A stretch of 64,000 nucleotides of DNA. It comes from Bacteroidales bacterium (GTDB lineage: Bacteria; Bacteroidota; Bacteroidia; Bacteroidales; VadinHA17). Location: assembly GCA_009877105.1 (NCBI GenBank), contig WXFD01000019.1:9355-73354 (forward strand), read 5' to 3'. Numbering within the stretch: position 1 is the stretch's first letter; every line of letters starts with the position of its first letter. Positions 19,604-41,123 of the stretch are shown piece by piece. Below the pieces are notes generated by a model that was not told the DNA's origin, did not search any database, and saw nothing but the letters and a program-made list of their open reading frames with translations. Made by a program: the position numbers and the translations under genes.

Positions 19604-19607
19604 GTTT

Positions 19608-23375: not shown

Positions 23376-23383
23376 CAAAATTA
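23376..23383 (-). promoter_or_regulatory. TAATTTTG -7 promoter box upstream of the LptF/G-like gene
   Basis: Perfect TAnnTTTG match on the minus strand, 20 nt upstream of the ATG at 23356. Confidence 0.4.
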
Positions 23384-23466
23384 CTTGATTTTTTGCAATA
23401 ACCTGCAGTCAGGCTTTGCCAATTATGAATAACACAGGCAGTCTGGAAGGAAATGCATTTTTAATA

Positions 23467-23850: not shown

Positions 23851-23916
23851 TTTATTAGCAGCAATTAGCCCTTGCATTCTGCAATATAGAAAAAAATATC
23901 AAAAGAAAAAATCATA

Positions 23917-23947
23917 TTGGAATTTTGATGGCAACTCCTTATATTTG
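23917..23947 (+). promoter_or_regulatory. Candidate tRNA-Met promoter (TTG at 23917 or 23925, TATATTTG at 23940..23947)
   Basis: Perfect TAnnTTTG match 46 nt upstream of the mature tRNA 5' end, with upstream TTG elements. Confidence 0.45.
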
Positions 23948-23992
23948 CACCCTCAAAAAGTACCTCCCTCGCTGAAGCTGCTGAGGTCAAAT

Positions 23993-24066
23993 GGCGAGAT
24001 AGCTCAGATGGTTAGAGCGCATGATTCATAATCATGAGGTCGGGGGTTCAATTCCCCCTCTCGCTA
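23993..24066 (+). tRNA. tRNA-Met (anticodon CAT), elongator-type; a lysidine-modified tRNA-Ile2 cannot be excluded from sequence alone
   Basis: 74-nt cloverleaf folded by hand: acceptor GGCGAGA/TCTCGCT (G1-U72 wobble), D-arm GCTC-AGATGGTTA-GAGC, anticodon arm CATGA-TTCATAA-TCATG, variable loop AGGTC, T-arm GGGGG-TTCAATT-CCCCC, discriminator A. No CCA is encoded. There are no three consecutive G-C pairs in the anticodon stem, so it is not an initiator. Confidence 0.92.
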
Positions 24067-24071
24067 CAATC

Positions 24072-24116
24072 AAAAGCCCTGTGAAAGCCGAAGGCTGACA
24101 CAGGGCTTTTTTGTTT
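24072..24116 (+). terminator. Intrinsic terminator after tRNA-Met
   Basis: Perfect 12-bp stem AAAAGCCCTGTG/CACAGGGCTTTT with an inner AGCC/GGCT pairing, followed by TTGTTT. Confidence 0.65.
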
Positions 24117-24163
24117 GAAGCGCGTGAGCTTGCTCACAGGGTTGAAAAACTAAAAAGCCCGTA

Positions 24164-24190
24164 GTCAGGCCCCAGCCTGACAGGGTTTTT
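24164..24190 (+). terminator. Second terminator-like hairpin (GTCAGGC-ccca-GCCTGAC then AGGGTTTTT)
   Basis: 7-bp perfect stem read directly, with the T-run 4 nt after the stem. Confidence 0.4.
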
Positions 24191-24224
24191 GGTTGTTAAG
24201 CTCCGCCCTGTGAATCGCCTCCGG

Positions 24225-24245
24225 ACAATTACCCCTCTCTCTACA
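24225..24245 (+). repeat. 21-nt direct repeat of the tRNA-Met 3' end (18/21 identical to 24048..24068)
   Basis: acaattacccctctctctaca vs tcaattccccctctcgctaca. It has the same orientation and lies 177 nt downstream of the tRNA copy. Confidence 0.45.
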
Positions 24246-24439
24246 CGGAAAATCAACCACTTCCATAGTCAAACATGGAGGTGATATTTGTTTTGTGCCA
24301 GGTTTTTATGAAAAGATTAATTGAGAGATGATATCTGGTATCTTAGAAATGGAGACCATTTCATTCACCAGTGAGGTTTTATGCAATAGTTCATCCAAGT
24401 ATTTATCTTCAATTTCTCAAAATAGTGCCATATCAGATT

Positions 24440-25348
24440 TTACTCGAAATTCTTCTTCTCAACTAACATACCGTTGTTGATAGTCTGCCATATTGTATTG
24501 CCTTCGTGTGGGACGCAATCCTGCACCCAGGTCCACCAGAAATAGCCGCCTATATAATTTGATACATATTTTGGCATGGTGTAGTAATGTAAAGCCATTT
24601 GGGTTTTGCTTTCGGTAGTGGCATTATCTGCCGTGTTGCCACATTCGCTGAAACCAACCTTTGAATGGGGGAACATTGTCTGAAGTTGGTTAAAAACCTG
24701 CTGCCAATTGGGCTGAAATCCGTGGTTGTCATCTTCATAATAGCTGACGATCATATAATCAAGATTATCCTTCATATCCTGAGGGACATATTTATTCAAC
24801 CATTCAAACATGCTCATTTCATGGCTGTCAGGTTCTGTCTCGTAGCCTGTAACTGCTGCTCTGGCCTTCTTTCCTTTAATATATTTAAAAGCCGCGTACA
24901 TTTTATCGGCATTAAATTGCCGGTCATCGCCAATCCAGCCTTCACCATTGATTTCATTGGCTACTTCCCAGATGTCAGTATAAGCAGCAAGTGCTTGATA
25001 TGATTCCTTAAACCGCTTCAAATAATCGTCAATAGTTGTATATGATTCCATGTAATATGAATCAACCGGGCTGGCCATAACATAAGCAACTTTGTGGATT
25101 TCCCTGAAGGTGGTAATATACTCCTTTGGTTCAATTTTGTTTGACATGACAATGCGGACGGTCGGCTTTACAGGCATGGCTTTGATGGCAGCTATGATCT
25201 GGTTAAGTTTGGTTTGGCCTGTCCAACTGTCATCAACAGTTATCCCGTATAAGGGGACCGGTAATTCAGCTGATGATTTTTTGTTGCTTTCCCGGCTTGT
25301 GCAGCATGAAAGGGAAATAGTTAAAAGAATGAACAGTAATCTTTTCAT
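24440..25348 (-). CDS. Lipoprotein, putative small clan GH-A-like glycoside hydrolase (family not assignable)
   Basis: 302 aa with lipoprotein signal LLTISLSCC. WEVANEINGEGW (NE acid/base-like) and KVGFSECG (nucleophile-like) are spaced as in (beta/alpha)8 clan GH-A enzymes. The call rests on motifs only. Confidence 0.4.
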   Translation of the reverse strand: MKRLLFILLTISLSCCTSRESNKKSSAELPVPLYGITVDDSWTGQTKLNQIIAAIKAMPVKPTVRIVMSNKIEPKEYITTFREIHKVAYVMASPVDSYYMESYTTIDDYLKRFKESYQALAAYTDIWEVANEINGEGWIGDDRQFNADKMYAAFKYIKGKKARAAVTGYETEPDSHEMSMFEWLNKYVPQDMKDNLDYMIVSYYEDDNHGFQPNWQQVFNQLQTMFPHSKVGFSECGNTADNATTESKTQMALHYYTMPKYVSNYIGGYFWWTWVQDCVPHEGNTIWQTINNGMLVEKKNFE

Positions 25349-25452
25349 GATATTAATAGTTATAGTTAATGTTACCTCGCGAATTCTATTAGCTTCCTTT
25401 CAGTGTAATTGAGAAGGCCTGAAATTAACCTGCTTATAAATTTATGCGGTAT

Positions 25453-27021
25453 TTAAGATTTTGTCAACATCTCGGTTATATGCCTCCTGACTTTTGGTTC
25501 TGTTCCTTTTGCAATAAGGGTATTACGGCCTTCATAGCCGCCTTCATCAATCATCTTGTCGGTGGGCATATATGATAAGGTACCCCCAGTAAGGCTTACA
25601 ATCCATGGTTTTTGCGTTTTAAATTGCTCACGAAGGGCGAGGGATGTTTCAACTGAAACTTCAGAATTCATAAATACAATTGGCGTTTCGTTTAGCCTTA
25701 ACACAGAGTAGGGGGCAGGCTTAAAGCCATTGATCCTATCGGTTTGGGTAATAAGCCCAAGGGCATAATAAGCGCCCCAGTCAAGCCAGTTGAGTACATT
25801 TGCCAGCCTCCTGAGTTCACTAAGATCTCCGTTAGCAGCCAGAAAGTTGTAATATTCCCTGGTGAGAGCTTTGCGAATGACCTCGATTTCTTCTGCTGAT
25901 GCGGGAAGTGATGGATCTAAGGGAACGTCGAACATTGAAAATTTATAGCGAAATCCGTTGAGCCTGGTAAAATGTGCTCTTTGGAGAGCAGTGATGGCTG
26001 CACTGGCTATTTCTTTCCCGATACGGTCAATGTCGGCAAGCAGCTCATTTTCGTCAATTGCATGAAATTCGCTCAGGGGACCGAGGTACACTTCATTGAA
26101 TTTATAATCATCCCATAATTGGTATTTTACACGTTCTTTTGGCACAAGGTTGCCACTTCCGCCTTGAAGGAACAAGCAATGTCCGCCAAGTTCCTTTTCA
26201 AGGTAATTCCTAGTTCGTCCGGGAAAATCGGGATCCCACATTGACTCTCTGAAGAATGATGCCTGGTGAGGATGTGCCGAGAATCTGACAATGCTTCCTA
26301 ATGGCTTGTCCTTGAGATCAACGAAATACATGACCTGCACCCAGGGATCCACTTCGCGGTCGAAATATACCTTTTCTTCACAACTTTTATAATTACCCAA
26401 TTTGCCCATCCATCGCGATGACATTTCATTAATCAATGCCGACGCTTCCGGCCGGTCATCGCCTTCATTATATTCGTAACCAAACCAGTACGTTTGTATG
26501 CCCATGCCTGTGTTGGTATCGCCCCGCCGATGGACGCTTAACCGTTTACCAACATTTTCTTCTCCGATCTTCAGTTTGGCAGGCTTGGCATTTGAAAAGG
26601 CATTGTTTGCTGTTTGTGTCAGTAATTCAACCAGTTTGGTGGCATCGATCATCCGTTCGCCCTGCCCATGGTCCCAGGGGCCACTATGCGTATGCGTAGT
26701 GTGGAGCAGGATTGATTCGGGACTGATATTAAATGTTCGTCCAATTTTTGCCTGAACGTCTTCACAAAATCCCAAATGAACCTCTCCAAAATCAAGCGCA
26801 TACAAAAGAACGTTTAGTTTGCCTTCTTCCAAGACCATGCACTTTGCTTCAAGCGGGTAACGGTATCCGGTATCGCTTATGATGCAATCCCTGAGATCAA
26901 CCGTTGAAAAACCGACTTTAATATCGCTTTTCCCTTTACTTTCAATGTTGAAATCAGGCGAAAACAATGGAAGCGCGATGCTGCCCAATGCTGCTTTATT
27001 AATAAATTCCCTGCGTTTCAT
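25453..27021 (-). CDS. Neutral/alkaline ceramidase-like N-terminal-domain protein with Tat-type signal
   Basis: 522 aa. MKRREFINKAALGSIALPLFS is a Tat-like signal, and HTTHTHSGPW resembles the zinc-site motif of neutral ceramidases. The remainder was not assignable by eye. Confidence 0.5.
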   Translation of the reverse strand: MKRREFINKAALGSIALPLFSPDFNIESKGKSDIKVGFSTVDLRDCIISDTGYRYPLEAKCMVLEEGKLNVLLYALDFGEVHLGFCEDVQAKIGRTFNISPESILLHTTHTHSGPWDHGQGERMIDATKLVELLTQTANNAFSNAKPAKLKIGEENVGKRLSVHRRGDTNTGMGIQTYWFGYEYNEGDDRPEASALINEMSSRWMGKLGNYKSCEEKVYFDREVDPWVQVMYFVDLKDKPLGSIVRFSAHPHQASFFRESMWDPDFPGRTRNYLEKELGGHCLFLQGGSGNLVPKERVKYQLWDDYKFNEVYLGPLSEFHAIDENELLADIDRIGKEIASAAITALQRAHFTRLNGFRYKFSMFDVPLDPSLPASAEEIEVIRKALTREYYNFLAANGDLSELRRLANVLNWLDWGAYYALGLITQTDRINGFKPAPYSVLRLNETPIVFMNSEVSVETSLALREQFKTQKPWIVSLTGGTLSYMPTDKMIDEGGYEGRNTLIAKGTEPKVRRHITEMLTKS

Positions 27022-27192
27022 GTTTTAGTTTTTTGGACTATTGTCAAATTGAATCTTAATATTTTCCTACTCTTATATTGCCACTCCAAAGAGTCGCAAG
27101 TCTAAAGTTAAAGTATTGAGTCACAATTTGTTAATTAGACAGCAATGATGAAATACTTCATGTTTCAAACTCCATACTTCAGGCCCCATTGG

Positions 27193-30030
27193 CTAAAAAT
27201 CCTTATCCAATACCATCATTGCTTCTTTCCCATCGAGGTCTTGTTTGGCAAAGCGCGCAGTCAATACTTTTTCCTCCCCTGGAAACAACGTAACGAAATT
27301 ATCGCTCCAGAACGTTGGCCATACTTCATCGCCGCCTTCCCCTTTGGTGATCATGAACCGGTTAAAGAATGAAACTTTGTTGCTGTTGTTTTTTATTCGT
27401 GCAATGACCATGTATTCTTCGCCATCCGATTTGATAACGTGCGAAATATCAAGTTCAGTTTTGGATAGTCCTGCTATAGCACGAAGATCGACTTGTTCTT
27501 TATTCGATGACAACCAATACAAGTTATCTGAAACGACATCTCCCTTATTGTTTTTTAGCTGGAGCCTTACAAAATAAGCCAAATTCAAACCTTGCAGCTC
27601 AGGAATTTTAAAGAGCTCCTTATAACGGTCGGCTTCAATAGTGAATTTCTGTTCTTTATGCCATTGTTCTGTCATGTCGAGGTTGAATACTTTCACAATT
27701 GCTGTAAGGTTTTTATGGCTCTTGTGCCGGGTGTTTATTACCGAAACTGTATAATCGAGTTCATTCAGCTGTATATGAAGAGGTTCCAGTGCTTTTTTGG
27801 TATAATAATAAGCTGCATTGGGGTTCAAAAACCAATCGTAAATTTGCCAGAGCACCTGTGGCCACACGGCATTCAGTTTCCATATCATAACCCCCGAAGT
27901 AATATCCCACATACGGTGGTTGGCCGCTTCGAACATGGCCCGATAGCTCCCTGCATTAACGTATTGAGCCCATCGCAAATAGTCTTCAACAGTTTGCGGT
28001 TGGCCATATTGAGAACGGATGGCATTGTCATATGTGCTGTAGATATCGTCATCACCATCTACGGCATCATGGTAAGCCCATGCTTTGTCAAGCGGGTAGA
28101 GACTGTCTTTTGGCCCAGAACCGAGGTCGAAAATGTATTTTTTCATGCTCCCCAGGGTAGAAACTGCAGGGACGCCCATTTCATTCCGGAACATCTGATC
28201 CTTAACTTCCAGTACCTTGCGATAATAGTAATCATGAGGATACCAAGTATAATCGGGCGGCCCCTCATCGGTCATCCCGGTTGGCAGATCAGGCTTTATG
28301 TAAGGGGTGAGCTTGTCAACATCCCAGCCTATACTTGAAGAAGCAATAAAAATACGGGTTGTGTCATGTTCCTTGATGTATTTTCTTAATGGTACATATA
28401 AATCTTCACGTATCATGGTTTCGCACTGCATGGCCCAGATTGTAAGGCTTGGGTGGTTGCGATACCTTTTCACGATATCAAAAGAGTTTTCAAGCGAAAG
28501 CTTGGTATCGACAGGGTTGTTAAAAGTCTCAGTACCAGGGTAGCTTGTCCAGCATTGGTAAAATGTTTCCCACATCATCAGGCCGTACTTGTCATATGTT
28601 TCCATTACGTATTCGGGCGGGGCAGGCATATCTTCATTAGCTATCATGTTTACCCCCGATTCTGCAAGTAAGCGTGCTTCATCGTACATGCGTTTCTTAC
28701 TCATGTCGAGCATCATATCTGGTTGTATCCACCCGCCACGGCAAAATACCCGTTGACCGTTTACTAAAAACACCCTTCCAAACTCCCCATTAAGTTCTTT
28801 CAACGTGCTCCCAAGCTCACGGATACCGAAGGTCGTATTTTTAACATCAGAAGATGTACCGTTCGTCTCGAATGTAAGATTGAGGTTATGCAGGTACTGC
28901 TTGCCATATCCGTTGGGCCACCACAAATGCGGATTTTTGATAGTTAACTGCTTGAAATCCTTGGGTGAAAATGAAACTTTTACCGTTTGCCCGGCAGGGA
29001 TTTCAATTGCTTTCTCGAATGTTACTGTATTCATGTTGCCCGGCATCTCTTTTTTGTAGGTGCAGAAGTCAATGACTTTCAACATGTCAATACTACCCCT
29101 GAGAACACCTTTTTGTGCTATGGTTCCTGAGTTTTTCAGCCCGGCGGAAATGTAAATTTCAGCCTTGGTCGTGTCAGGGAGTGGCAAATCGGTAATAATA
29201 TACGGGTCAACAATGGTAACATCACCAGAGTAGGTAAGGAATACATCCTGGTAAAGACCCATGTTGCGATCGCGTACGACCGGGGCACAATCCCATCCTG
29301 CCATAAATTTTATTGTAACGTCTTTAAAAATGTCCTCAGCCCAACCGCGGCTTGGACCAAAAACTTCAAACTGGTAGCCGGGATTTGGCGTACCAACATG
29401 GTCAACCTGGTGTATTTTGACTGCAAGTACGTTTTGTCCTTCAAAATTCACCTGATCGCTAATATCATATTGAAACCTCCTGAACATACCGGCCATGTCA
29501 GTTGAACTGGCAATTTGTTTGCTATTCAGCCAAACATCGGCCCGGTAATTGATGCCGTCAAAGTTCAGCCACACCCGTTTGCCTTTCTTTTCGGCAGGTA
29601 TTCTGAATGTCGTCCTGAACCAGTACGGATCTTTAAACGGGTTGTCAACACCTTTGATATGGCTATATTTTGCCAGACCCATTTTTTCATTGAATGTATC
29701 GCAGGCATCAGGGATTTGCAGGTCATTCAGGTCGAAATGCGGGTCGGGGTAAATACCTGCTTTTACCAGAGCATTCAGCACGGATGTGGGCACTTCAGCC
29801 TTTACCCAGGCAGAATCATTGAATCCAGCTGTTGATATAGTTGATCCATCGGAAGAATCCTGCGTGGTAGATTCAATCCGCCATTGTTTTAAGAATTGCT
29901 TTTCGTTTTCTGACAAAACGAAACCGGAGTTTTGTTGGTGCTTACAGGATTGGAATGTCAGGGCTGTTGACAGAACAGTGCAAGCCATCAGTACTGCTGA
30001 ATTTCTAAAGAATACTTCTCCTATTTTCAT
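27193..30030 (-). CDS. Glycoside hydrolase family 2 lipoprotein (beta-mannosidase / exo-beta-D-glucosaminidase branch)
   Basis: 945 aa with signal ending FQSC. N-terminal W-x-KAEVPTSVLNALVKAGIYPDPHFDLN, plus PHLWWPNGYGKQYL, LVNGQRVFCRGGWIQPD and GLMMWETF fit the GH2 sugar-binding/Ig/TIM architecture of BmnA/CsxA-like enzymes. Confidence 0.75.
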   Translation of the reverse strand: MKIGEVFFRNSAVLMACTVLSTALTFQSCKHQQNSGFVLSENEKQFLKQWRIESTTQDSSDGSTISTAGFNDSAWVKAEVPTSVLNALVKAGIYPDPHFDLNDLQIPDACDTFNEKMGLAKYSHIKGVDNPFKDPYWFRTTFRIPAEKKGKRVWLNFDGINYRADVWLNSKQIASSTDMAGMFRRFQYDISDQVNFEGQNVLAVKIHQVDHVGTPNPGYQFEVFGPSRGWAEDIFKDVTIKFMAGWDCAPVVRDRNMGLYQDVFLTYSGDVTIVDPYIITDLPLPDTTKAEIYISAGLKNSGTIAQKGVLRGSIDMLKVIDFCTYKKEMPGNMNTVTFEKAIEIPAGQTVKVSFSPKDFKQLTIKNPHLWWPNGYGKQYLHNLNLTFETNGTSSDVKNTTFGIRELGSTLKELNGEFGRVFLVNGQRVFCRGGWIQPDMMLDMSKKRMYDEARLLAESGVNMIANEDMPAPPEYVMETYDKYGLMMWETFYQCWTSYPGTETFNNPVDTKLSLENSFDIVKRYRNHPSLTIWAMQCETMIREDLYVPLRKYIKEHDTTRIFIASSSIGWDVDKLTPYIKPDLPTGMTDEGPPDYTWYPHDYYYRKVLEVKDQMFRNEMGVPAVSTLGSMKKYIFDLGSGPKDSLYPLDKAWAYHDAVDGDDDIYSTYDNAIRSQYGQPQTVEDYLRWAQYVNAGSYRAMFEAANHRMWDITSGVMIWKLNAVWPQVLWQIYDWFLNPNAAYYYTKKALEPLHIQLNELDYTVSVINTRHKSHKNLTAIVKVFNLDMTEQWHKEQKFTIEADRYKELFKIPELQGLNLAYFVRLQLKNNKGDVVSDNLYWLSSNKEQVDLRAIAGLSKTELDISHVIKSDGEEYMVIARIKNNSNKVSFFNRFMITKGEGGDEVWPTFWSDNFVTLFPGEEKVLTARFAKQDLDGKEAMMVLDKDF

Positions 30031-30934
30031 AATAAGTATTATTATTCTGAATAATTAAACATGCAGCACCAATAAAGCCTGCATAATCACCAAGTGTTGC
30101 TTTTACAATTCTCGTTTTTTCAGCGGGAATCGGGCATATCCATTTTCTTAGCATTTTCTCCATTGAAGCCTTAAAAAAATCGTAAGCATATGTAATCGAT
30201 CCGCCTAGTACCACAACCTCAGGATCTAAAAGGTTAATGGTCCAGGCAAGCGGAACTGCAAGGTGTTCACCAAATGCTTTCCATGCCTGTAAGGCTTCTT
30301 TATCGCCTTGCTCTGCAAGTTGATACACTTCCAAAGAGCTTCTTTCCTTGCCTGCAACCTCCCTGAAAAGCCTTGTTACACCCCGTCCGGAAATATAGTC
30401 TTCAATTATCCCGTTCTTGTAGGGCGACGGCCATATTTCGGCAGCCGTTCCGGTTGCGCCATTAAAAATATTTTGATTGAGGACGATGGCGCAACCCAGG
30501 CCTGTGCCTAAAGTAAATCCAACCACGTTTTTTTTATCCTTGGCTGCCCCATAAATACATTCAGCCAGGATAAGGCAGTTGGCATCGTTGTTTAGCTCAA
30601 CCGGAATATTAAAATGGCTTTGAATAGCTTCACGCAAATTGAAAAAGTGCATGTTAGGTAGTTGCGGGCATTCCAGTATTTCTCCCTTTAAGCTGTCAAC
30701 CGGTCCGGTTGCACCAACGCCAATACCCAGAACCTCGCTGATGTTCGCATCAATAGTATTCAGGCTTTGCTCAATGGAACCAATAATGCGCTGAACAATT
30801 ACTTCGGCATGATCATTGCCCCCGGTAGGGACCCTTATCGGTGTGCCGCAAACATTTCCTTCACGGTCTATTACACCGGTCATTATTTTGGTACCTCCTA
30901 AGTCAACACCTATTAAAAGTTTTTTCAGACTCAT
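30005..30934 (-). CDS. ROK-family sugar kinase-like protein (no HTH; zinc Cys motif absent)
   Basis: 309 aa with the GVDLGGTK ATP motif, NDANC and GTGLGCAIV. The canonical G-H...C-x-C-G-x2-G-C-x-E segment is replaced by AAEIWPSPYKNGIIEDY. Its 3' end overlaps the GH2 start by 26 nt. Confidence 0.75.
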   Translation of the reverse strand: MSLKKLLIGVDLGGTKIMTGVIDREGNVCGTPIRVPTGGNDHAEVIVQRIIGSIEQSLNTIDANISEVLGIGVGATGPVDSLKGEILECPQLPNMHFFNLREAIQSHFNIPVELNNDANCLILAECIYGAAKDKKNVVGFTLGTGLGCAIVLNQNIFNGATGTAAEIWPSPYKNGIIEDYISGRGVTRLFREVAGKERSSLEVYQLAEQGDKEALQAWKAFGEHLAVPLAWTINLLDPEVVVLGGSITYAYDFFKASMEKMLRKWICPIPAEKTRIVKATLGDYAGFIGAACLIIQNNNTYYENRRSIL

Positions 30935-31153
30935 AAATTACGGAATATCATATTTTGCATGCTTTTGTACATACATAACTTAATTTCTCTTTGTTTAGTA
31001 ATTCCCGCTTACCGTAGCATCCCCTTAATGTCAGTCGTCAGGCCGGAAACCCTGAACCGGATTTGCACGACTTCCCTTTTTAAACGGTATTCCTTCTGAA
31101 AGGGAATGTGGATAATATAATACTATGTACAACTAAACGACATTGAAAGACAT

Positions 31154-32419
31154 TTAATAGTTTCGAATGTCTGCTTCCGCATTGCTGTTGGCTTCTCTTA
31201 TTCTACCGATGTCCAATTTCCCTTTTCCCCACAATGCCAGGACAGTAACGTATAAAAATGCAACTACATTAACGGCCATTCCCCATTTCATACCTGCATG
31301 CTGGCCGGTAAAACCTACCAGCCATCCGAGAAAAGCCCCACCAACAATGGCTGTACCTAAAATGCCTGATATGGTTCCATGATATTCACCAAAACTATTT
31401 ATAGCGGCGCTGAATATAGATGTAAATGATGCACAGGTGAAATAACCAACCAGGGCAAATGCAACAAGTGCAGTATTGGCATTGCCGGTAATGGCAACCA
31501 ATAACGCAAGAACAGTACCCAAACTATGAAAAATAAATATCTTTTTTTCGCTGAAATACCTCATCATAACTGAAATAATAAGCCTGCCCATTGCCTGTAA
31601 CAGCCAGAACAGGGCTACTACCAATGCAGTTTTTGAAGGAAATATAGCATTCATGAAGGTCCCTTCTGCCCAGAACGATTGGCTGTTAATCACACCGTGA
31701 ATTCTATTCATGTATATAATAATGTAAGATGAAACACCCACTTCAGCGCCTACATACAGAAATATACCCAAACTATAGGTAATGATGACGGGGTGTTTCA
31801 GTAATAAACCAATACTGGAATAATTGATTTTTTCTTCTTCGTTCAGTTTCACCCTCGGGAAACTGGCCATTGCCAATACAATAAGCAAAACAGTGTTAAA
31901 AAACCCAAACAAAAGATAGACAGTTTTCCATGAGAAGCCATTGGCCTGCATTATAGGAACAAGCAACGGGCTAAATGCATAACCGAGTGAACCGATACCA
32001 ATAATAATGGTAAGGTTTGCCGTGTAATTATCAGGTTTATCAAGCTCCCTGATAAAGGGGTTGCCGGCAACCTGGATGGCTGTTACGCCTACTCCAACAA
32101 GGAATATAACCAGTATAACAACCAAATAGTTTGAGCTTATAAAACAGAGGAACGACCCAAGGGCCATCAGCAAAGTTCCCAGAAGTAAAATCCGCTTTGC
32201 TCCGAACTTGTCCATTGCCAGGCCGAATGGTACCGAAGTAAGTCCATAGGCTACGTAAAAGGCAAATGGCAAAAGTGCAGCAATACTCAATGATACATTG
32301 TAATCATTCTCGAATCGATCAATAATAACACCAATAACTGAAGTGAGCAGGCCAAACGAAATATACAGCAGCACTGTTACAACAAATAAAAGCCTGGATT
32401 TTGGTTTTGCAGACATCAC
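31154..32419 (-). CDS. MFS sugar transporter of the FucP/GlcP/NagP type
   Basis: 421 aa with 12 predicted TM helices. The short hydrophilic N-terminus and GAKRILLLG-type loop are typical of glucose/galactose/fucose:H+ symporters. Confidence 0.8.
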   Translation of the reverse strand: MMSAKPKSRLLFVVTVLLYISFGLLTSVIGVIIDRFENDYNVSLSIAALLPFAFYVAYGLTSVPFGLAMDKFGAKRILLLGTLLMALGSFLCFISSNYLVVILVIFLVGVGVTAIQVAGNPFIRELDKPDNYTANLTIIIGIGSLGYAFSPLLVPIMQANGFSWKTVYLLFGFFNTVLLIVLAMASFPRVKLNEEEKINYSSIGLLLKHPVIITYSLGIFLYVGAEVGVSSYIIIYMNRIHGVINSQSFWAEGTFMNAIFPSKTALVVALFWLLQAMGRLIISVMMRYFSEKKIFIFHSLGTVLALLVAITGNANTALVAFALVGYFTCASFTSIFSAAINSFGEYHGTISGILGTAIVGGAFLGWLVGFTGQHAGMKWGMAVNVVAFLYVTVLALWGKGKLDIGRIREANSNAEADIRNY

Positions 32420-33472: not shown

Positions 33473-33478
33473 ATTCAC

Positions 33479-34045
33479 CTAGTTTTAAACATGTGCATTA
33501 CCCAATTACCTTTTTCAAGATTCAGACAATGAATATATAACATAAAGATTCCCGTCAGAAACATATTGAGAAGCACAGGCATTATTTTGCGATAATATGG
33601 GGTTGTTTGTGACACGCGGGTAAGCTTTGTCAACCTCGTCGGATTGGAAAACAGTGGTACCCCATTTATCATTTGTCTTGTTAAGTTTCTTTGCCAGAAG
33701 ATAATAGAAGTTGTTATAAAAAGCTACATCCGGAGCTGCGAGCGACTTTTCCGAGCGGAGGACCTCGTATGGCTTGTTTGTTAGCAAGTCATTCGGGTTA
33801 TTGCCCTTTTTTACATATACACTCCATCCCTGGTTATTTTGAGAACGCTCTGTCCCATTGCAATAAAAAAGGTAAAAATTGTTGATCATTTTGATAATGA
33901 TTTAAACCGCAATATCCCCGGTATTTGTAACCATCATGATTGACTTCCTCTATTGATAATGTATGGACTGCATCTGCATCCCAACTGTACTTATTCCCCC
34001 GAATAACAAATTGATCTTCGTTAATTTCGGGGCAAAGTCATTTCT
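33479..34045 (-). pseudogene. Decayed ORF remnant (frameshifted; possibly a beta-propeller GH43-like hydrolase fragment)
   Basis: Gene-free 640-nt gap in an otherwise tight operon. My minus-strand translation gives ...FVIRGNKYSWDADAVHTLSIEEVNHDGYKYRGYCG in one frame. This continues in another frame as NNFYLFYCNG...LAAPDVAFYNNFYYLLA...DGNLYVIYSL. There is no usable start, and the total length is far too short for the fold. Confidence 0.4.
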
Positions 34046-34119
34046 GTGTATTTATTGAAAATAAGAAGTTAATAAACATATTATTGAAAATGCATGTTTT
34101 GTGTTCATTCTTGAAATTG

Positions 34120-34911
34120 TTATGCAATAATCACTTCAATTCCATTGTTATTAAGCTGTTGTAATTCCTGTTCCGACAGCTTTTTAGTGGTAACAATAGT
34201 ATTTATCTTTGTTAGCGGTGAGATCACGCCCAGGCTCCTTCTTCCGAATTTTGACGCATCCACAACCAGGATTGTTTCTCCTGAGATTTCCATCATCACC
34301 CGGCTTGTTTTTGCCTCATGAATGTTTGGGGTAGTGAGACCTACTTTAAAATCTATTCCGTCAACGCCCATAAATAGTTTGTCGGCGGTAACCTGTCTTA
34401 ACATGTTGTCTGCCAAAGGGCCGACCAAGGTCGAGCTTTCCTTTAGCAGGTTGCCCCCAACCAGGATCACAGATATTTCGCTGTTTTGTAGTTCAATGGC
34501 AATATTCATGGCGTTCGTAATAACGGTAATTCGATTCCTGTTTTTAATCTCCTTTGCCAACAAGCTTGTGGTTGACCCGGAATCGAGGATAATTGTATCA
34601 CCGTCGAGGATCATTTTGGCTGCCTGCTTCGCTATTCGGACTTTCTCCTCCCTGTTTATCTTTTCTTTTTCGTTTAGTGCCAGGCCCGGATATAATTTCT
34701 TTGTTATAATAGCCCCGCCGTGAGTGCGCCTTAACAAACCTCTTTGTTCGAGCAATGCAAGATCTTTGCGAATAGTAACCGAAGTAGTATTCAGAATCGA
34801 TATCAAGTTTTTAGTTAGAATGCGGCCTTCTTTTTCAAGCATGTCCATAATTTTCCCCAGGCGTTCTTCCTGAAATACAAGATTATTGTTCATTTTTACT
34901 TCTCGGTTCAT
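34120..34911 (-). CDS. DeoR/GlpR-family transcriptional regulator
   Basis: 263 aa with an N-terminal HTH (ISILNTTSVTIRKDLALLEQRGLLRRTHGGA) and a C-terminal DeoR sugar-phosphate sensor domain (IILDSGSTT ... FMGVDGI). Confidence 0.9.
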   Translation of the reverse strand: MNREVKMNNNLVFQEERLGKIMDMLEKEGRILTKNLISILNTTSVTIRKDLALLEQRGLLRRTHGGAIITKKLYPGLALNEKEKINREEKVRIAKQAAKMILDGDTIILDSGSTTSLLAKEIKNRNRITVITNAMNIAIELQNSEISVILVGGNLLKESSTLVGPLADNMLRQVTADKLFMGVDGIDFKVGLTTPNIHEAKTSRVMMEISGETILVVDASKFGRRSLGVISPLTKINTIVTTKKLSEQELQQLNNNGIEVIIA

Positions 34912-35022
34912 TGGTGATGTCTAACAAAATTTGCCCTGGCTAAAATACACCAAATGAATTTCTTTTTCTTGCATTTACTTTCGCTTTTATTAACAATTAA
35001 TAATGCCTATTTAAGAATGGTT

Positions 35023-35862
35023 TTAATCTGGAGGATTGTAGCCCTTTCGTTTGAAACTCCATGACCAGCCTGTTTCGTCCTCATCTTTCTGATCCTGCCA
35101 AAGTACCATCTCGTCGTCGGTAAGAAGAACAATACGGTAAGTTCCTTTTGATGTTACGGCGGGATTGGTACATTCTATGTCATGGTCGAGGATATATGGA
35201 TCTTTAATGGTGATAGTCATTTTTTCGGCGTCAAGGATAAATGTTCCTTTCACTCCCTCGTCTCCAGCCTCGTGGTGGTAGGTGTAATTGATACCACCGT
35301 CTAAGTCGAATACCATTTCACCTTTAATATCAGGCGTAATTTGGACACATTGCCCCCAACTATTTTGTGGCATCCAGCAATCAGGCTCTTCAACGATGTT
35401 AAACCAGGTTTGGTAACAATAGTCAGGAATTCCGGTTTCGGGATCGGTGTTATATACCCATGTTTTACCAGCTCCCTCGCCTGTTAATTCTCTCCATACC
35501 GGTCTGGTAAAAACTGTAGGGTCAGTATTTTCAACCGTAAAAGTTATTTCCGCTGTAGTGCTGGCAGCGCCTTCGCCGTAAACTGTTACAACAACAGTAT
35601 ATGTGCCCTCAAAGGGATAATAGGAAGTTTCTGTGGGTTTGCCAGGCTTAATGATTTGTTTGTTACCCATGTCCCAGTGATAGATGTATCCGTTATCTGC
35701 TGTTACCGTAAAAACCGGGTTATAGGGATCGTCGGTATTCACGGTTAATTTTGCATTAGCTGGCGCCGGGCCCACTTTACCTATTTCATCCATCTGCGGT
35801 GTACAGTATGTAACAAAAAATAATGTGGCGCAGATAGAAACAGTTTTAAGTATGTTTTTCAT
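35023..35862 (-). CDS. PKD-like domain surface lipoprotein (SusE/F-position glycan-binding protein candidate)
   Basis: 279 aa with lipoprotein signal FFVTYC and an Ig/PKD-like segment (FTVTADNGYIYHWDMGN...GTYTVVVTVYGEGAAS). It lies immediately downstream of SusD. Confidence 0.5.
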   Translation of the reverse strand: MKNILKTVSICATLFFVTYCTPQMDEIGKVGPAPANAKLTVNTDDPYNPVFTVTADNGYIYHWDMGNKQIIKPGKPTETSYYPFEGTYTVVVTVYGEGAASTTAEITFTVENTDPTVFTRPVWRELTGEGAGKTWVYNTDPETGIPDYCYQTWFNIVEEPDCWMPQNSWGQCVQITPDIKGEMVFDLDGGINYTYHHEAGDEGVKGTFILDAEKMTITIKDPYILDHDIECTNPAVTSKGTYRIVLLTDDEMVLWQDQKDEDETGWSWSFKRKGYNPPD

Positions 35863-35897
35863 TTTATTCTTAATTTATATGATCTGAAGTGCATGAA

Positions 35898-37391
35898 TTA
35901 ATAAGGATTCTGTTCCAGGTTCGGATTTAAATTGATCTCAACCTGAGGTATAGGGAAATACCGTTTATTATCAGTATAGCCTTCCATGAGGTTTCCTCTT
36001 CCTGTTCTCACCAGGTCCCAATAGCGGTGGCTTTCAAGAGCCAGTTCCACCCGACGTTCATGATATATGGCTTTCAATGGGTCACTTCTGAACGGCGAAG
36101 GCCCTAAGCCAACCCTTGCTCTTACTTTGTTTAAAGGAGTTTCCCAATCATTGCCATTATGAAATGCAGCTTCCGATTGCCACAGAAGTACATCAGCGAA
36201 ACGGATTACCCTTACGTTGAGTCCGGCAGCATCGATCATGCCGGGGCGCTGGCTCAATGGCAAGGTACCTTTACGTTTGTTGTAACCTGTCATAGGCTTA
36301 TTGTCGTTGTGTACAGGGTCCCACTTAGTATAAATAATTTCTTCATCATCAGTTCCTTTCCACAAGGTGTCCCCATCCGAAATGATTGTCCATTTTCTAC
36401 GAATGTCACCCGGTTCAAATTCGTCATACAAATCTTGAGTGGGTTGGTCAAATCCCCATCCGCCATTCCGGTCATCCCGGCTGCGCTGGTATATTTCCAC
36501 CTGACTTCCTTCATTTTCGTCTCCCCAGGCTGTCATGTTGAAGTCTTTTTGCTGCACATCGAAAACCGACTCAATTCCATTGTCAGTAGCAATGGTAAAC
36601 AGGTCGCCGTAATTTTTCTCAAGTTCGTAGTCACCAGACTCGACAATTTGCCTGGCCAGGGGTTCTGCTTCTTTCCACTTTTCCTGAAATATATAAGCTT
36701 TTGTAAGAAAGGCTGCGGCAGCACCCCATGTAGCCCTTCCGATTTCTGCTGCAGGCATGTCCTTTTTGTTTGGCAGTCCTTCCATAGCGTCCTTAAAGTC
36801 ATTTTCTATGGCAGTCCAGCATTCTTCAAGGGTATTGCGAGGCTTGCTGTATTCTGTTACGAGTAAAATGTGGTCAACAATTGGAAATGCCCCGAAAACT
36901 TTGATAAGGCAAAAGTTGTAATATCCTCTTATAAATTTCGCTTCGGCAATAATACGTTTCTGCCCATCAGGTGTTATGTTTTCATTGTCAGTAACCCCTT
37001 CAATAACACGGTTTGCCCTGTTAATACCTATATAAAGCTGCCTCCAGACAATTGCAAGCGAAGGGTTTTCAGCATTTGTTTTAAAATGCTCCATATCATA
37101 TATGGTTTGTTGGTCGCCATCTCCACCACCACCTTTTGCAGCATCGTCAGATACTACATCGCCGATTACCCAGTCGAGGTATTGGATATATTCCATCCAT
37201 CCCATAGGGTCGTAAGCACCTACCAGTGCTGTAAGTGCTGTCTTGTCAGAAGAAAAGAATGAACTCTGATCAATGCTTGGGACGTTAGTGTCCAGAAAAT
37301 TATCAGGATTACAAGCCTGGAAACCAAGGATAAGCAATAAAGCAATTGAAATAAAACAAAATATCTTTCTCATAGTTGTAAAATTTTTCAT
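35898..37391 (-). CDS. susD: SusD/RagB-family nutrient-binding outer-membrane lipoprotein
   Basis: 497 aa with lipoprotein signal (LGFQAC), TPR-like helical core motifs (RAEAKFIRGYYNFCLIKVFG, YHERRVELALESHRYWDLVR) and a C-terminal FPIPQ motif. It starts 6 nt after SusC. Confidence 0.9.
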   Translation of the reverse strand: MKNFTTMRKIFCFISIALLLILGFQACNPDNFLDTNVPSIDQSSFFSSDKTALTALVGAYDPMGWMEYIQYLDWVIGDVVSDDAAKGGGGDGDQQTIYDMEHFKTNAENPSLAIVWRQLYIGINRANRVIEGVTDNENITPDGQKRIIAEAKFIRGYYNFCLIKVFGAFPIVDHILLVTEYSKPRNTLEECWTAIENDFKDAMEGLPNKKDMPAAEIGRATWGAAAAFLTKAYIFQEKWKEAEPLARQIVESGDYELEKNYGDLFTIATDNGIESVFDVQQKDFNMTAWGDENEGSQVEIYQRSRDDRNGGWGFDQPTQDLYDEFEPGDIRRKWTIISDGDTLWKGTDDEEIIYTKWDPVHNDNKPMTGYNKRKGTLPLSQRPGMIDAAGLNVRVIRFADVLLWQSEAAFHNGNDWETPLNKVRARVGLGPSPFRSDPLKAIYHERRVELALESHRYWDLVRTGRGNLMEGYTDNKRYFPIPQVEINLNPNLEQNPY

Positions 37392-37397
37392 CCAGGA

Positions 37398-40300
37398 TTA
37401 TAGACTAATATTTATTCCAATACTGTACATTCTGGCCGGGGGATAATATCCACGGTCAACGCCTACGTCGAATGGATCGTCGTTACGCATTCCTACCTCA
37501 GGATCGAGTCCGGTATATTTGGTAAAGGTAAACAGGTTTTGGGCATTGATAAATGCACGTATTAAATCGATTTTTATCTTTCTCGTGAGAACCTGAGGCA
37601 GGGTGTATCCAAGCTGAACGTTTTTTATCCTCAGGAAAGAGCCGTCTTCCAGCAACCTGTCGGACTGAAGAATTGAATTATTGTCCATGGTGCCGCCCAT
37701 CCTCGGATATTTCGGGTTATTTTGTGTACCTTCTCCATGCCAGCGTTTAATCATGTCTCTTGAAAGATTATTGTATCCTCCGAGCCCTGATAATGTGTAC
37801 ATCGAAACACCATTATATACTTTGTTGCCGTAAACGCCCTGGAAGAAACAACTAAAATCGAATCCCTTATAAGCACAACTGCCGGAAATCGAGTATGTTA
37901 GTTTTGGCAGCGGGCTTCCAAGAATGAAGAAGTCATTCGCATCAAGTACCCCGTCGTTGTTTTTATCAACGTATTTTACATCGCCCGGAGCAACTCCTTC
38001 CTGTGCCGTCTGGGCGCTTATCTCATCCCAGTTCTGGAACAATCCATCTGTCTTATATCCAAAAAATTGTGCAATGGGTGTGCCTACCTGCGTCCTGGTT
38101 AAGTACACAGTGTTATAGAAAAAAGCACCATCAATAAATGCATTATCAGCCCCAAGATCTAAAACTTTGTTTACAATTTTTGATAAAGTACCGCTAATAG
38201 TATATGTAAATGCATGGTGGTAGTTTCTGTATTGCAGGCTTAGTTCAACTCCTTTGTTGCTGAATTTGCCTTTATTCTGGAACGGGGAATCCAGTAATCC
38301 CGCCTGACCTGGCGTAGGTACGCGCAGCAACATGTTGTCTGTTATTTTCTTGAAGTAATCGACACTACCCGAAATTTTTCCCTTGAAAAACTCGAAATCG
38401 ATTCCAGCATTTATTGTTTCAGTAGTTTCCCATTTAAGTTGAGGGTTCCCGGTGCCGTTAAAACTGAAACCCGAGGTAAGGATACCACCCCATACGTAAT
38501 TCGCATCGGGAGAAGCAAATGTTGAATACTGATATCCAATTACACTTTGCTCGTTTCCTATTCTTCCCCAACCTGCGCGGAGTTTCAGATTGTCAATCTT
38601 GTCATATTGTTCCATAAACGGCTCCTCCGACAACCTCCAACCAACCGAAAATGAAGGGAAGTAATCCCAGCGTTTTCCACGGACAAACTTTGACGATCCG
38701 TCTGCCCTGAAATTTGCAGTTAACAAGTAACGCTCTTTGAAGTTGTAGTTTATCCTGGCCAATCCGGAAAGTTGTTTTACTCTTGTAGTAATACCTGATG
38801 ATTCACCGGCATTTTTTCCAATGGCATTATCGATGAAAAATAAATTGGGATCATTGCTGGGAATATCCTGAACCGACACGCCAAGGCTCTTGTATGTTTG
38901 AGAATACGATTCACCACCAGCCATTATAGAGAACTCGTGCCCGCCTATTTTCTTCTCAAATGTCAGGGTATTCGACCATTGATTGATAAGACTGCTGTAT
39001 GTTGAATTGGTCAAATTACTTTGATTCGGGTTTTGCTGTGCCGCGAATACATAATATACAGGAGTGTAGTTTGAATATTCAACGTTTGAATATTCTGCAG
39101 ATATGTTTGTACGAAAGATGAGTCCTTTAAGGAGTGTAACATCTGCAAAAATATTTCCCAGGCCCCTGTAATTTATACTTCTGGGATTGTCGTATTCAAT
39201 CACGGCGAGCGGGTTCCAGATGTCGCTGTAAATAGCTTTGTTGAATTTGCCGTCATCGCTCAAGGGCGGGGTTACCGGGTCGCGTGTAAAAGACGTTAAA
39301 ATGGGGCTGGTCCATTCATCATTTTCGTATTGCGACTTATAATTGGTCTTAACAAGCGTGATATTTTCCCCGATCTTCAACCATGGCTTCACATTAAAAT
39401 CACTGTTTGCCCTAACTGTAATCCTCTCAAAACCTGTTTTTTTTATGATGCCATTCTGTGCGAACTGACTGGCGCTTAAAAAATAAGTGCCCTTATCAGA
39501 TCCACCTGAAAATGACAAGTCGTTCTTTTTGATAGGCGCATTTTTTTCGCAAATTGCTTCAAAATAATTATAAGTAGGCAGTTTGGAAGGATCTTCAAAA
39601 AGCGGCTCCTGACCAGTTGCCACAGCAGCTTCGTTGCTCAGGTATCCCCATGTAGGCCCGTCAAGCATGTTGGAAGAACGCCATGGATTTTGGATGCCAT
39701 AATAGCTGGAGAAACTTACATTACCATCGCCGCTTTTCCCTTTTTTGGTAGTAATAATGATAACGCCATTGGCGCCCCTGGAACCATAAATTGCTGTTGC
39801 CGAAGCATCTTTTAGAACCTGAAGCGTTTCAATATCGTTAGGATTGAGAAAATTAATGTCATTTAGCATCATTCCGTCAACCACAAACAAGGGATCAGAA
39901 TTATTAATCGTCCCGACCCCGCGCACGCGGATCATCATATTAGAGCCTGGCGTGCCTGAGTTTGTCGTTACATCCACACCTGCGACCTGCCCTTGTAGTG
40001 CCTGGTCGAGTGTGGCTACTGCGCGTTGGTTAATTTCTTTTATGTTAACGGTTGAGATGGCCCCGGTAAGGTCGCTTTTCTTTTGCGTACCAAATCCTAC
40101 TACAACTACATCTTCAAGGCTATGAATGTCTTCGGTAAGCTCTACGTTTACTTCGTTTAGGCCTGTAATATTCTTTGTTTCAGAAATAAATCCAATAAAT
40201 GAGAACTGAAGTTCCCTGTCAGTAGCACTAACCGGGATTTCATATTTCCCATCCGCATTGGTTGTTGTTCCTTTTGTAGAACCAGGTATAAAAACGTTGA

Positions 40301-40424
40301 CGCCAGCCAAGGCCTCATTCGTTTTTTTAATAGTAACCGTGCCATGAATGACTCTGTTTGTCTGAGCATTTAACAACAATGGCATAAAAACCAGGCAAAT
40401 TAAAAAGCACTTTAGTTTTTTCAT
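37398..40424 (-). CDS. susC: SusC/RagA-family TonB-dependent outer-membrane transporter
   Basis: 1008 aa with a CarboxypepD_reg N-terminal domain (IHGTVT...GVNVFIPGS...TNADGKYEI), a plug (VVVGFGTQKKSDLTGAIS, ALQGQVAGV, IRVRG) and a barrel with a terminal aromatic motif. Confidence 0.95.
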   Translation of the reverse strand: MKKLKCFLICLVFMPLLLNAQTNRVIHGTVTIKKTNEALAGVNVFIPGSTKGTTTNADGKYEIPVSATDRELQFSFIGFISETKNITGLNEVNVELTEDIHSLEDVVVVGFGTQKKSDLTGAISTVNIKEINQRAVATLDQALQGQVAGVDVTTNSGTPGSNMMIRVRGVGTINNSDPLFVVDGMMLNDINFLNPNDIETLQVLKDASATAIYGSRGANGVIIITTKKGKSGDGNVSFSSYYGIQNPWRSSNMLDGPTWGYLSNEAAVATGQEPLFEDPSKLPTYNYFEAICEKNAPIKKNDLSFSGGSDKGTYFLSASQFAQNGIIKKTGFERITVRANSDFNVKPWLKIGENITLVKTNYKSQYENDEWTSPILTSFTRDPVTPPLSDDGKFNKAIYSDIWNPLAVIEYDNPRSINYRGLGNIFADVTLLKGLIFRTNISAEYSNVEYSNYTPVYYVFAAQQNPNQSNLTNSTYSSLINQWSNTLTFEKKIGGHEFSIMAGGESYSQTYKSLGVSVQDIPSNDPNLFFIDNAIGKNAGESSGITTRVKQLSGLARINYNFKERYLLTANFRADGSSKFVRGKRWDYFPSFSVGWRLSEEPFMEQYDKIDNLKLRAGWGRIGNEQSVIGYQYSTFASPDANYVWGGILTSGFSFNGTGNPQLKWETTETINAGIDFEFFKGKISGSVDYFKKITDNMLLRVPTPGQAGLLDSPFQNKGKFSNKGVELSLQYRNYHHAFTYTISGTLSKIVNKVLDLGADNAFIDGAFFYNTVYLTRTQVGTPIAQFFGYKTDGLFQNWDEISAQTAQEGVAPGDVKYVDKNNDGVLDANDFFILGSPLPKLTYSISGSCAYKGFDFSCFFQGVYGNKVYNGVSMYTLSGLGGYNNLSRDMIKRWHGEGTQNNPKYPRMGGTMDNNSILQSDRLLEDGSFLRIKNVQLGYTLPQVLTRKIKIDLIRAFINAQNLFTFTKYTGLDPEVGMRNDDPFDVGVDRGYYPPARMYSIGINISL

Positions 40425-40560
40425 TCGATTAGTAGTAATTTATTATTAACACTATAAAGATCAGCCACTTTAGAATATACATTACATATAAGTAATAATC
40501 ATAATAATGCTCACTCCTTAATGAGTTTTATTGATCTCTCATTGCAATATTAAAATAATA

Positions 40561-40592
40561 ATCATAAAAAAGCAAACGAAATCATAAAAAAG
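40561..40592. repeat. Direct repeat atcataaaaaag x2 with 20-nt period in the SusC upstream region
   Basis: Exact 12-mers at 40561..40572 and 40581..40592, with a related aatcataataatg at about 40497. Confidence 0.5.
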
Positions 40593-40860
40593 TTACGAAT
40601 TTATTTTCATAATTGAATTATGAAGCGTCTCAATTATTAATTAGTTAAATACATACTAACCCGTAATCTCAACCAACATGAAAAGAATGACTATTATACA
40701 GCTGATAAAGAGAGATATATATAAATTCTGATTGAAACAGGATGATCTATTTAAATAAAAAGAGGATGTATTTAATTAAATAGTTTCCTTATTTAAAGTC
40801 CTGGAATAAAGAAACTAAAAGAAATCAACTGCTGTTAATCCTGATCAAGGCTTAATTAAA

Positions 40861-40908
40861 TGAATGGCCGGGAAATGACCAAAAAATGGCCAGAAAATGG
40901 CCAGAAAA
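40861..40908. repeat. Iteron-like tandem array: four imperfect copies of aaTGGCCag with ~11-nt period
   Basis: gaatggccg / aaatgacca / aaaatggccag / aaaatggccag. The last two units are exact 11-mers (40883..40904). Confidence 0.5.
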
Positions 40909-40996
40909 TAAAACTTCAAAATTAAGGATGGATTAGGTCTGCCCTTTTTCAACTCATTTAATATATTATCAAATAATTGGACATATTTATTGATTT

Positions 40997-41046
40997 GCAT
41001 GATTCATAATCACCAGGCCGGGGGTTCAATCCACCTGTAAATCGCT
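40997..41046 (+). repeat. Degenerate copy of the 3' half of tRNA-Met (att-like direct repeat; not a functional tRNA)
   Basis: 40997..41030 matches 24019..24052 (anticodon stem through T-loop) at 31/34 nt. The tail decays but ends in tcgct. There is no acceptor 5' strand or D-arm, and the anticodon and T stems are broken. Confidence 0.7.
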
Positions 41047-41123
41047 GCCGGCAATTCTACCTCTCCTCAACTAAGAATCCTGTGAAGGCTGTTATGAAAG
41101 CTTCCCCAACAGGAATATCACAG

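Follow-up and report, generated by a model that had tools for sequence, protein, structure and literature searches.

We analyzed a stretch of 64,000 nucleotides (nt) from an uncultured Bacteroidales bacterium (assembly GCA_009877105.1, contig WXFD01000019.1; hereafter, the window), in which a tRNA-Met gene and a displaced copy of its 3' half enclose a complete polysaccharide utilization locus (PUL) of the SusC/SusD type. We found that the PUL block, at positions 24246-41030 (16.8 kb), is a clean insertion or deletion (indel) relative to a sister species, and that a 41-nt direct repeat forms its two boundaries. The right half of this repeat is a decayed copy of the tRNA gene from the T-loop to the 3' end. 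The block is probably a genomic island, placed by site-specific insertion of the tyrosine-integrase type at an attachment (att) site derived from the 3' end of tRNA-Met, with the complete SusC/SusD locus as its cargo.

The tRNA-Met gene and the genes downstream of it

Both ARAGORN and Rfam call a single tRNA in the window, the tRNA-Met(CAT) at 23993-24067 on the plus strand (Rfam, 74.6 bits). The segment 24019-24052 of this gene recurs on the same strand at 40997-41030 with 31 of 34 identical positions (three mismatches) and nowhere else in the 64 kb. A second match of the tRNA 34-mer was obtained in none of 100 dinucleotide-preserving shuffles; an independent repeat search recovered the same pair (87% over 39 nt); and a hidden Markov model (HMM) built from the tRNA-Met 3' halves of relatives matches 40997-41034 with E = 6.7e-8. 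The similarity starts sharply at the 5' strand of the anticodon stem: by direct count, the 26 nt upstream of the fragment agree with the tRNA 5' half at only 6 positions, and the next 16 nt agree at all 16. A gapped alignment carries the fragment (40997-41046) through the T-arm to a decayed tail ending in 'tcgct', and neither ARAGORN nor Rfam calls a tRNA there.

A preceding analysis without database searches (the sequence-only reading) had reported this copy, described it as running from the anticodon stem through the T-loop without an acceptor 5' strand or D-arm, and named a shuffle test as the check; all of this holds. Only the short length of the match would favor chance resemblance or a dispersed repeat family. 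The shuffles and the HMM match refute that explanation, as does the fact that the 64 kb contain just one further copy, which has the expected strand and borders an indel.

The features between and including the two copies are as follows. Partial tRNA copies are called scars and numbered from left to right; scars 1 and 3 are described below. Lengths of proteins are in amino acid residues (aa).

23993-24067, plus strand: intact tRNA-Met(CAT), the predicted live attachment-site gene (ARAGORN; Rfam; tRNA comparison across relatives)
24440-25348, minus strand: 302-aa PUL protein, no family match (Pfam)
25453-27021, minus strand: 522-aa PUL protein, no family match; its counterpart follows the GH2 gene in the Petrimonas PUL, 62% aa identity (Pfam, comparison)
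27193-30030, minus strand: GH2 glycosidase; best solved relative, exo-beta-D-glucosaminidase CsxA (Pfam; PDB 2vzs)
30005-30934, minus strand: ROK-family sugar kinase (Pfam)
31154-32419, minus strand: MFS sugar transporter (Pfam)
32420-33478, minus strand: SIS-domain protein, similar to the isomerase half of GlmS (Pfam)
33478-34100, minus strand: frameshifted pseudogene of a 308/309-aa gene (tblastn, two frames)
34120-34911, minus strand: DeoR/AgaR-like repressor (Pfam)
35023-35862, minus strand: 279-aa protein downstream of SusD, conserved in homologous PULs (comparison)
35898-37391, minus strand: SusD-like lipoprotein (Pfam)
37398-40424, minus strand: SusC-like TonB-dependent transporter (Pfam)
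40425-40996, strand not applicable: AT-rich stretch upstream of susC, the expected place of an integrase and its arm, neither of which is detectable (GC content, tblastn, profile search)
40997-41046, plus strand: scar 2, which reproduces the 3' half of tRNA-Met, starting with the anticodon stem and ending in the decayed 'tcgct' tail; a putative anticodon-centered att remnant (shuffles, alignment, repeat search, HMM)

Every gene between the tRNA copies is on the minus strand, and together they form one SusC/SusD locus, with adjacent susC and susD, a linked GH2 gene, a DeoR regulator, and a gene order that is kept in L095 (Petrimonas) and L097 (60-78% aa identity). The earlier count of 11 open reading frames (ORFs) plus one decayed ORF, all on the minus strand and all in one PUL, was right in strand and in kind and is corrected in number. 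We count ten intact genes and one pseudogene, to which the 124-aa ORF at 33515-33889 belongs. The counterpart of this pseudogene is intact at the same position in the Petrimonas and L097 PULs; the intact gene of L097 gives a weak GH43-like signal. The same 124-aa remnant is annotated in all the conspecific contigs examined.

The GH2 protein matches CsxA (PDB 2vzs) over nearly its full length (E = 1e-67); PDB sequence searches with the 522-aa and 302-aa proteins gave no match. The SIS protein is probably an amino-sugar-6-phosphate deaminase or isomerase, and the substrate of the PUL is probably a glucosamine-containing glycan such as chitosan. SusC/SusD would import the glycan, the CsxA-like GH2 exo-glucosaminidase would release the sugar, and the MFS transporter would take it up; the ROK kinase would then phosphorylate it and the SIS deaminase or isomerase would feed it into central metabolism, with the DeoR repressor controlling the gene set.

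In the region upstream of susC, the GC content of 40001-41000 is 32%. Short tandem AATGGCCAGAAA-like repeats at about 40860-40910, about 90 nt before the tRNA fragment, could be binding sites of a regulator or a recombinase, or plain low complexity.

A clean indel relative to the sister species

LptFG, encoded two genes upstream of the tRNA, gave a graded series of relatives. In the best-hit lists, these are at 92, 88, and 83% identity, whereas the next match of SusC is at only 64% (Petrimonas). The closest relative found is L085 (GCA_964435015.1), an 86-kb contig of a metagenome-assembled genome, with 92% aa identity in LptFG and about 85% nt identity in the flanks. It has the same genes as the window on the left side (DnaK ... 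Fmt-RibBA-LptFG-START-tRNA-Met) and on the right side (DUF5916-SPOR-221-aa gene). From the tRNA to the DUF5916 gene there are about 3.2 kb in L085, without the PUL. The blastn blocks, each at about 85%, are as follows.

Window 11821-24067: L085 up to the tRNA 3' end
Window 24144-24245: L085 6146-6047
Window 41031-43422: L085 6087-3693

Thus, collinearity stops exactly at the tRNA 3' end (24067) and resumes at 24144-24245. The 41 nt of L085 at 6087-6047 align also to 41031-41071, where the similarity continues into DUF5916. In L085, the second and third blocks share 41 nt, so that 24205-24245 and 41031-41071 are two copies of one sister sequence. The PUL block is a clean indel between them, with the repeat in single copy in L085. 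Within the window, the two copies align to each other locally with z of about 6.9.

The sequence-only reading had envisaged an empty site in which tRNA-Met is directly followed by the DUF5916 gene. L085 is collinear, lacks the PUL, and carries the repeat once; the tRNA does not directly precede the DUF5916 gene, because a 3.1-kb decayed element lies between them (L085 5990-9265). This element, at the same tRNA, includes HTH_3 and RelB-like genes and a CHC2 primase zinc-finger fragment (CPFHEDKEPSLKIYPETNTYNCFGCG), and it retains a 74-aa C-terminal integrase fragment (last ~100 codons of the integrase). In an alignment of the right end of the window's island with that of the L085 island, the score was not above shuffles.

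L085 also differs from the window at 45766-52303, a second indel. A URO-D-like gene, an SSF transporter gene, and a second GH2 gene (about 6.5 kb) are absent from L085, which has there about 1.1 kb with a DUF6444 (transposase-associated) ORF. All three genes are kept in the conspecific contigs examined there (L001, L002, L108, and L110).

An integrase family at tRNA-Met

A metagenome scan with the integrase fragment of L085 gave nine loci (L099-L107) with 81-85% identity. In three of the nine recovered contigs the tyrosine integrase is full-length (403 aa), and that of L105 (9014-10393) contains the Phage_integrase and SAM_5 domains of Pfam. In the case of L102, an IS21-like insertion interrupts the integrase gene. 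Tandem GTGCTAGG-type repeats follow the integrase stop codon in eight of the nine contigs. The 3' half of tRNA-Met stands about 125 nt after the stop, again in eight contigs (the exception is L106). This half opens with TTCATAA, precisely at the anticodon loop, and extends to CTCGCTAC; a terminator comes next.

This layout is that of a classical right attachment site (attR), and tRNA-Met is a genuine attachment site. L099-L107 represent a family of tRNA-Met-specific integrative elements in environmental Bacteroidota, and the island of L085 is a decayed member of it.

We then searched the window for mobility genes. A Pfam scan covered the 40 main ORFs of the 64 kb (at least 90 aa; every long ORF without overlap with a longer one, except one of 252 aa). 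It revealed no domain of an integrase, a transposase, or a transfer protein, and none of these ORFs is a conjugation or relaxase gene. With the 74-aa fragment of L085, tblastn against 40300-41100 and 24060-24460 detected no remnant. With the three full-length integrases and the truncated L102 fragment, tblastn against the whole window gave nothing near the island, with all E > 0.1. The claim that no integrase or transfer gene is left at the site thus agrees with both the Pfam scan and the family-specific search.

Three scars at one site

The right half of each 41-nt repeat is a decayed copy of the tRNA from the T-loop to the 3' end. On the left, 24226-24252 matches the tRNA at 24049-24075 (81%, repeat search). 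In L085, the sequence at the position of the bounding repeat reads CAATTCCCCCTCTCGCT, which is identical to the T-loop-to-acceptor segment of the window's tRNA. A 20-nt motif, CCTGTRAATCG..CCGG, precedes each T-loop-type fragment, and the motif CTGTAAATCA also stands just before attR in L105 and L107 (by eye). The additional features at the two edges are as follows.

24068-24225, plus strand: putative remnant of an independent small insertion that separates the tRNA 3' end from its displaced copy (repeat search, terminator scan, blastn with L085)
24205-24245, plus strand: left copy of the 41-nt repeat, with scar 1 (24226-24247, T-loop to 3' end, CAATTACCCCTCTCTCTACA) as its right half (blastn overlap on one L085 copy; 81%; z of about 6.9)
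24248-24310, plus strand: terminator hairpin, then GTGCCAGGTTT; predicted old tRNA trailer, now the left end of the island (multiple alignment, terminator scan; motif unique in the window)
41031-41071, plus strand: right copy of the 41-nt repeat, with scar 3 (41052-41071, T-loop to 3' end) as its right half, directly against the conserved DUF5916 flank (blastn with L085, alignments)

The order in the window is therefore live tRNA, 177-nt remnant, scar 1 with the old trailer, PUL, scar 2, scar 3, and DUF5916 flank. The displaced fragments at the far end of the island (40997-41046 and 41052-41071) have the orientation of the tRNA itself. The sequence-only reading had taken the live tRNA and the fragment at 40997 as the island ends and had missed the partial 3'-end copies at 24226-24247 and 41052-41071, and with them the true bounding repeat. 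Its att-like bracketing stands. As the bounding repeat is 24205-24245/41031-41071, the left edge is not the live tRNA; it is a second, displaced scar (24205-24247) 177 nt downstream of it.

This spacing of 177 nt is from the start of the tRNA 3' end to the start of its displaced copy. The intervening 24068-24225 holds two terminator-like hairpins (about 24073-24112 and 24150-24191), and its part 24144-24204 is common to the window and the att-distal side of the L085 island (blastn). The segment 24248-24310 is collinear with the sequence directly 3' of tRNA-Met in L091, L085, and L093 and with that 3' of attR in L107; it includes the only occurrence of GTGCYAGGWTT in the window (24295-24305). 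We had considered 24248-24310 as an element arm, as it resembles the left end of the L085 island (z of about 7.5). The multiple alignment shows it to be the common tRNA trailer, and the arm argument was dropped because the trailer also stands at chromosomal attR flanks. The left end of the island thus has one GTGCCAGGTTT; there is no family integrase, and the right arm is not significantly similar to those of the family.

From these comparisons, the site carries three scars of two crossover types, anticodon-centered and T-loop. The segment 24226-24310 would be an older tRNA 3' end with its trailer; a later insertion of small size (24068-24225), which brought the present tRNA 3' end and its own terminators, would have displaced it by 177 nt. 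This insertion may have taken place either before or after that of the PUL block.

Scar 2 can also be compared with the attR fragments of the integrase family. Both start in the anticodon arm, and the family start, at the loop, is 6 nt further 3' than that of scar 2, at the stem. Tandem tRNA genes are common, and the fragment retains the anticodon arm and the 5' strand of the T-stem, so one could regard it as a decayed second, tandem tRNA-Met gene, with the PUL inserted between the two genes later by another route. This is very unlikely: the fragment is unique in the window and shows no trace of a 5' half (6 of 26 positions upstream against 16 of 16 after), its sharp break lies in the arm where the family fragments also begin, and a tandem gene cannot account for two T-loop-type fragments, each after the same 20-nt motif.

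The site in other relatives and in the population

Among the relatives, the 5' half of the tRNA is nearly invariant and the T-arm differs in almost every lineage; it is identical only in the near-duplicate contigs L093 and L094. The T-stems are as follows.

Window: GGGGG/CCCCC
L085: CCGAG/CTCGG
L088: CCGGG/CCCGG
L093: CGGGG/CCCCG

L091 has the T-stem of the window and a different T-loop. An unusual T-loop, GATCATTCC instead of the usual GTTCAATTCC, is found in the tRNA-Met of L091 (9088-9162) and L093 (9098-9172), both of which ARAGORN still calls as tRNA genes, and in the attR fragments of L099, L103, and L107.

The 12 kb upstream are collinear among the relatives, and the genes downstream of the tRNA are different in every lineage, as listed here.

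L091: FG-GAP/ASPIC and ECF sigma/FecR/SusC genes
L093 and L094: cupin and MR_MLE genes
L088: AT-rich small ORFs

The tRNA-Met site is a recombination hot spot. The PUL is not in the DNA recovered 3' of the tRNA in three outgroup lineages (L088, L091, and L093/L094; 75-80% in LptFG), which covers about 9 kb in L091 and L093/L094 and only about 1 kb in L088. As these outgroups have other genes there, parsimony favors a gain of the PUL in the lineage of the window. A profile search of genome contigs with a DUF5916 alignment gave only distant relatives (at most 57%), none with tRNA-Met beside the gene, and in the case of a 61% DUF5916 homolog the synteny with the window is already lost.

Within the species, the PUL is in the same place in all the recovered conspecific contigs (L001-L003, L108, and L110-L112), which come from several digester and sewage samples. 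The right junction is identical in six of these seven. The more divergent L108 (93-97% nt identity) has lost about 100 nt (approximately window 41020-41117) between short GCCGGG-type microhomologies, and with them most of scar 2, scar 3, and the terminator hairpin of the DUF5916 flank. This deletion indicates that the scars are unconstrained relics.

Outside the species, the nearest relatives of SusC are at 64% (Petrimonas) and 60% (a large ENA group). The chromosomal surroundings of the homologous PULs of L095 and L097 are unrelated and contain neither a tRNA nor an integrase in the vicinity. This type of PUL is old and patchily distributed.

The interval differs from its flanks in composition. 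The mean GC content at third codon positions (GC3) is 0.42 for 11 interval ORFs and 0.49 for 30 flanking genes (Mann-Whitney p = 9e-5), and the total GC content is 0.42 in the interval and 0.46 in the flanks (p = 5e-4). The codon usage of the interval ORFs is further from the flank pool (p = 9e-4), and the tetranucleotide distance is modestly raised across 24-38 kb. The compositional offset is thus real but mild, in line with the earlier impression by eye of an AT-richer interval and with the discordance for which a GC and tetranucleotide scan had been suggested. The most deviant tetranucleotides in the window are elsewhere, at 27-4694, which encodes a 1555-aa SprB-repeat protein with a CHU_C/T9SS sorting domain and is followed by PorP/SprF. 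Another stretch, 8201-9129 (about 930 nt, GC content 0.39), lies between a CCA-adding/poly(A) polymerase-like gene and xseA and contains no ORF of at least 120 aa and no Rfam match.

These data bear on the possibility that the common ancestor already had the PUL 3' of tRNA-Met and that the PUL itself was never mobile. The scars would then come from unrelated elements, and the sister species would have lost the PUL when the two 41-nt scars, which are similar, recombined. Consistent with this, the left end of the island (24248-24310) is the ordinary tRNA trailer of the relatives, deletions between short repeats do occur at the site, as in L108, and no mobility gene accompanies the PUL anywhere it was found. 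Nevertheless, we consider an ancestral PUL rather unlikely. Three outgroup lineages that share the upstream synteny have other genes in the DNA recovered 3' of the tRNA (only about 1 kb for L088), and GC3 and codon usage separate the block from both flanks. In addition, the block is exactly bounded by att-like repeats, and its joined ends would rebuild a tRNA 3' half with a terminator, which is the attP layout.

Probable origin of the island

The data show directly the repeats, the clean indel relative to L085, the integrase family that uses this tRNA, the offset in composition, and the lack of any integrase remnant; the movement of the block itself by an integrase, the sequence of events, and the substrate are inferred. 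In the island reading, which we hold to be probable, the site would have been used repeatedly. With a later small insertion, the tRNA would have received a new 3' end, and the older end, with its terminator, would have moved 177 nt downstream, to what is now the left edge of the island. The right edge would be a double scar, with the anticodon-centered fragment first and the T-loop-type fragment after it. The recombinase and any transfer genes would since have been deleted, so that the island would be immobile on its own and fixed in the species.

Several observations weigh against this reading. Neither Pfam nor tblastn detected an integrase, excisionase, relaxase, or remnant of one inside or beside the island. 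A search by nhmmer with a profile of the family arm, from the integrase end to attR, matched only tRNA-like parts of the window. The sequence GGAATAAAGAAA follows the integrase stop codon in L085 and L105, and its one copy in the window (40803-40814) lies about 185 nt to the left of scar 2. When the right end was aligned with the family arms, one motif was shared at 14 of 15 positions with p of about 0.04 (in the best case, L085, the score was reached by 20 of 500 shuffles). As this right-arm alignment is not significant, the unique GGAATAAAGAAA motif is only a hint. Elsewhere, none of the PUL copies found has an integrase with it or lies at a tRNA, and no mobile copy was seen; the nearest non-conspecific SusC is at only 64%, and no donor was found. 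The left edge is a scar and not the tRNA, a layout that a canonical single-step integration at the tRNA fails to account for. Finally, the direction of the indel, either a gain here or a loss in L085, depends on parsimony with distant outgroups. Of the earlier proposal of an immobilized element that delivered a whole PUL, the fixed, integrase-less island at tRNA-Met is thus upheld, and the delivery by such an element stays inferential, as no PUL copy was seen with an integrase.

A variant of the island reading is that the block is a cargo-only cassette that is mobilizable in trans by the integrases of co-resident tRNA-Met elements, such as those of the L103-L105 family. It comes from the observation that the joined att-like ends rebuild the tRNA-Met 3' half and terminator. 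We consider this variant quite unlikely; if true, PULs could hop between genomes as hitchhikers without a recombinase of their own.

Comparison with known systems

The gain and loss of PULs drives niche differences among Bacteroidota. Small mobilizable elements of the NBU type in Bacteroides also target tRNA 3' ends by means of a tyrosine integrase. The present island, likewise in Bacteroidales, differs from them in the tRNA used (tRNA-Leu or tRNA-Ser in NBU elements) and in the int and mob genes, which NBU elements carry.

In human-gut Bacteroides, PULs for porphyran, carrageenan, and alpha-mannan are borne on integrative and conjugative elements (ICEs) at tRNA-Lys, at tRNA-Phe, or next to dnaK (10.1101/2020.06.09.142968). 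The present case resembles them in a whole SusC/SusD cargo at or near a tRNA, in short direct repeats, and in a single repeat copy where the trait is absent. In contrast, those are large ICEs that keep the integrase and tra genes and still excise, whereas here only 16.8 kb of cargo is present, with no mobility genes. The target here is tRNA-Met, and the host is an uncultured Bacteroidales bacterium from digesters and sewage.

In the islands in tRNA genes (tDNAs) that are collected by Islander, a regenerated tRNA and a displaced 3' fragment in the same orientation mark the ends, and anticodon-centered and T-stem-region classes of crossover are known (PMC4383910). The present site shares the end markers, both crossover classes, and the tandem use of one tDNA. 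Unlike those islands, its bounding repeat is a scar beside the tRNA, and the live tRNA lies 177 nt outside the exact left edge. As Islander requires an integrase gene inside the island, the present island would be filtered out; island finders with this requirement would miss such cases.

Apart from those on a few gut ICEs, variable PULs generally bear no trace of their route of arrival. In B. ovatus and B. xylanisolvens, variable PUL islands lie between core genes without mobility functions, and one route proposed as possible is delivery by ICEs at tRNAs, with the mobile DNA deleted afterwards (PMC8845570). The present island is similar to these in the presence or absence of a PUL between collinear core genes and in the lack of mobile-DNA genes; it is different in that the att scars expected from this route are still readable and in that an integrase family for the same tRNA was identified. 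The phenomenon is thus known in kind, and the present case is a useful worked example and not a new principle: with the surviving att scars, the sister site without the PUL, and the integrase family, it provides a concrete environmental example of the proposed route, tRNA integration followed by the loss of mobile genes.

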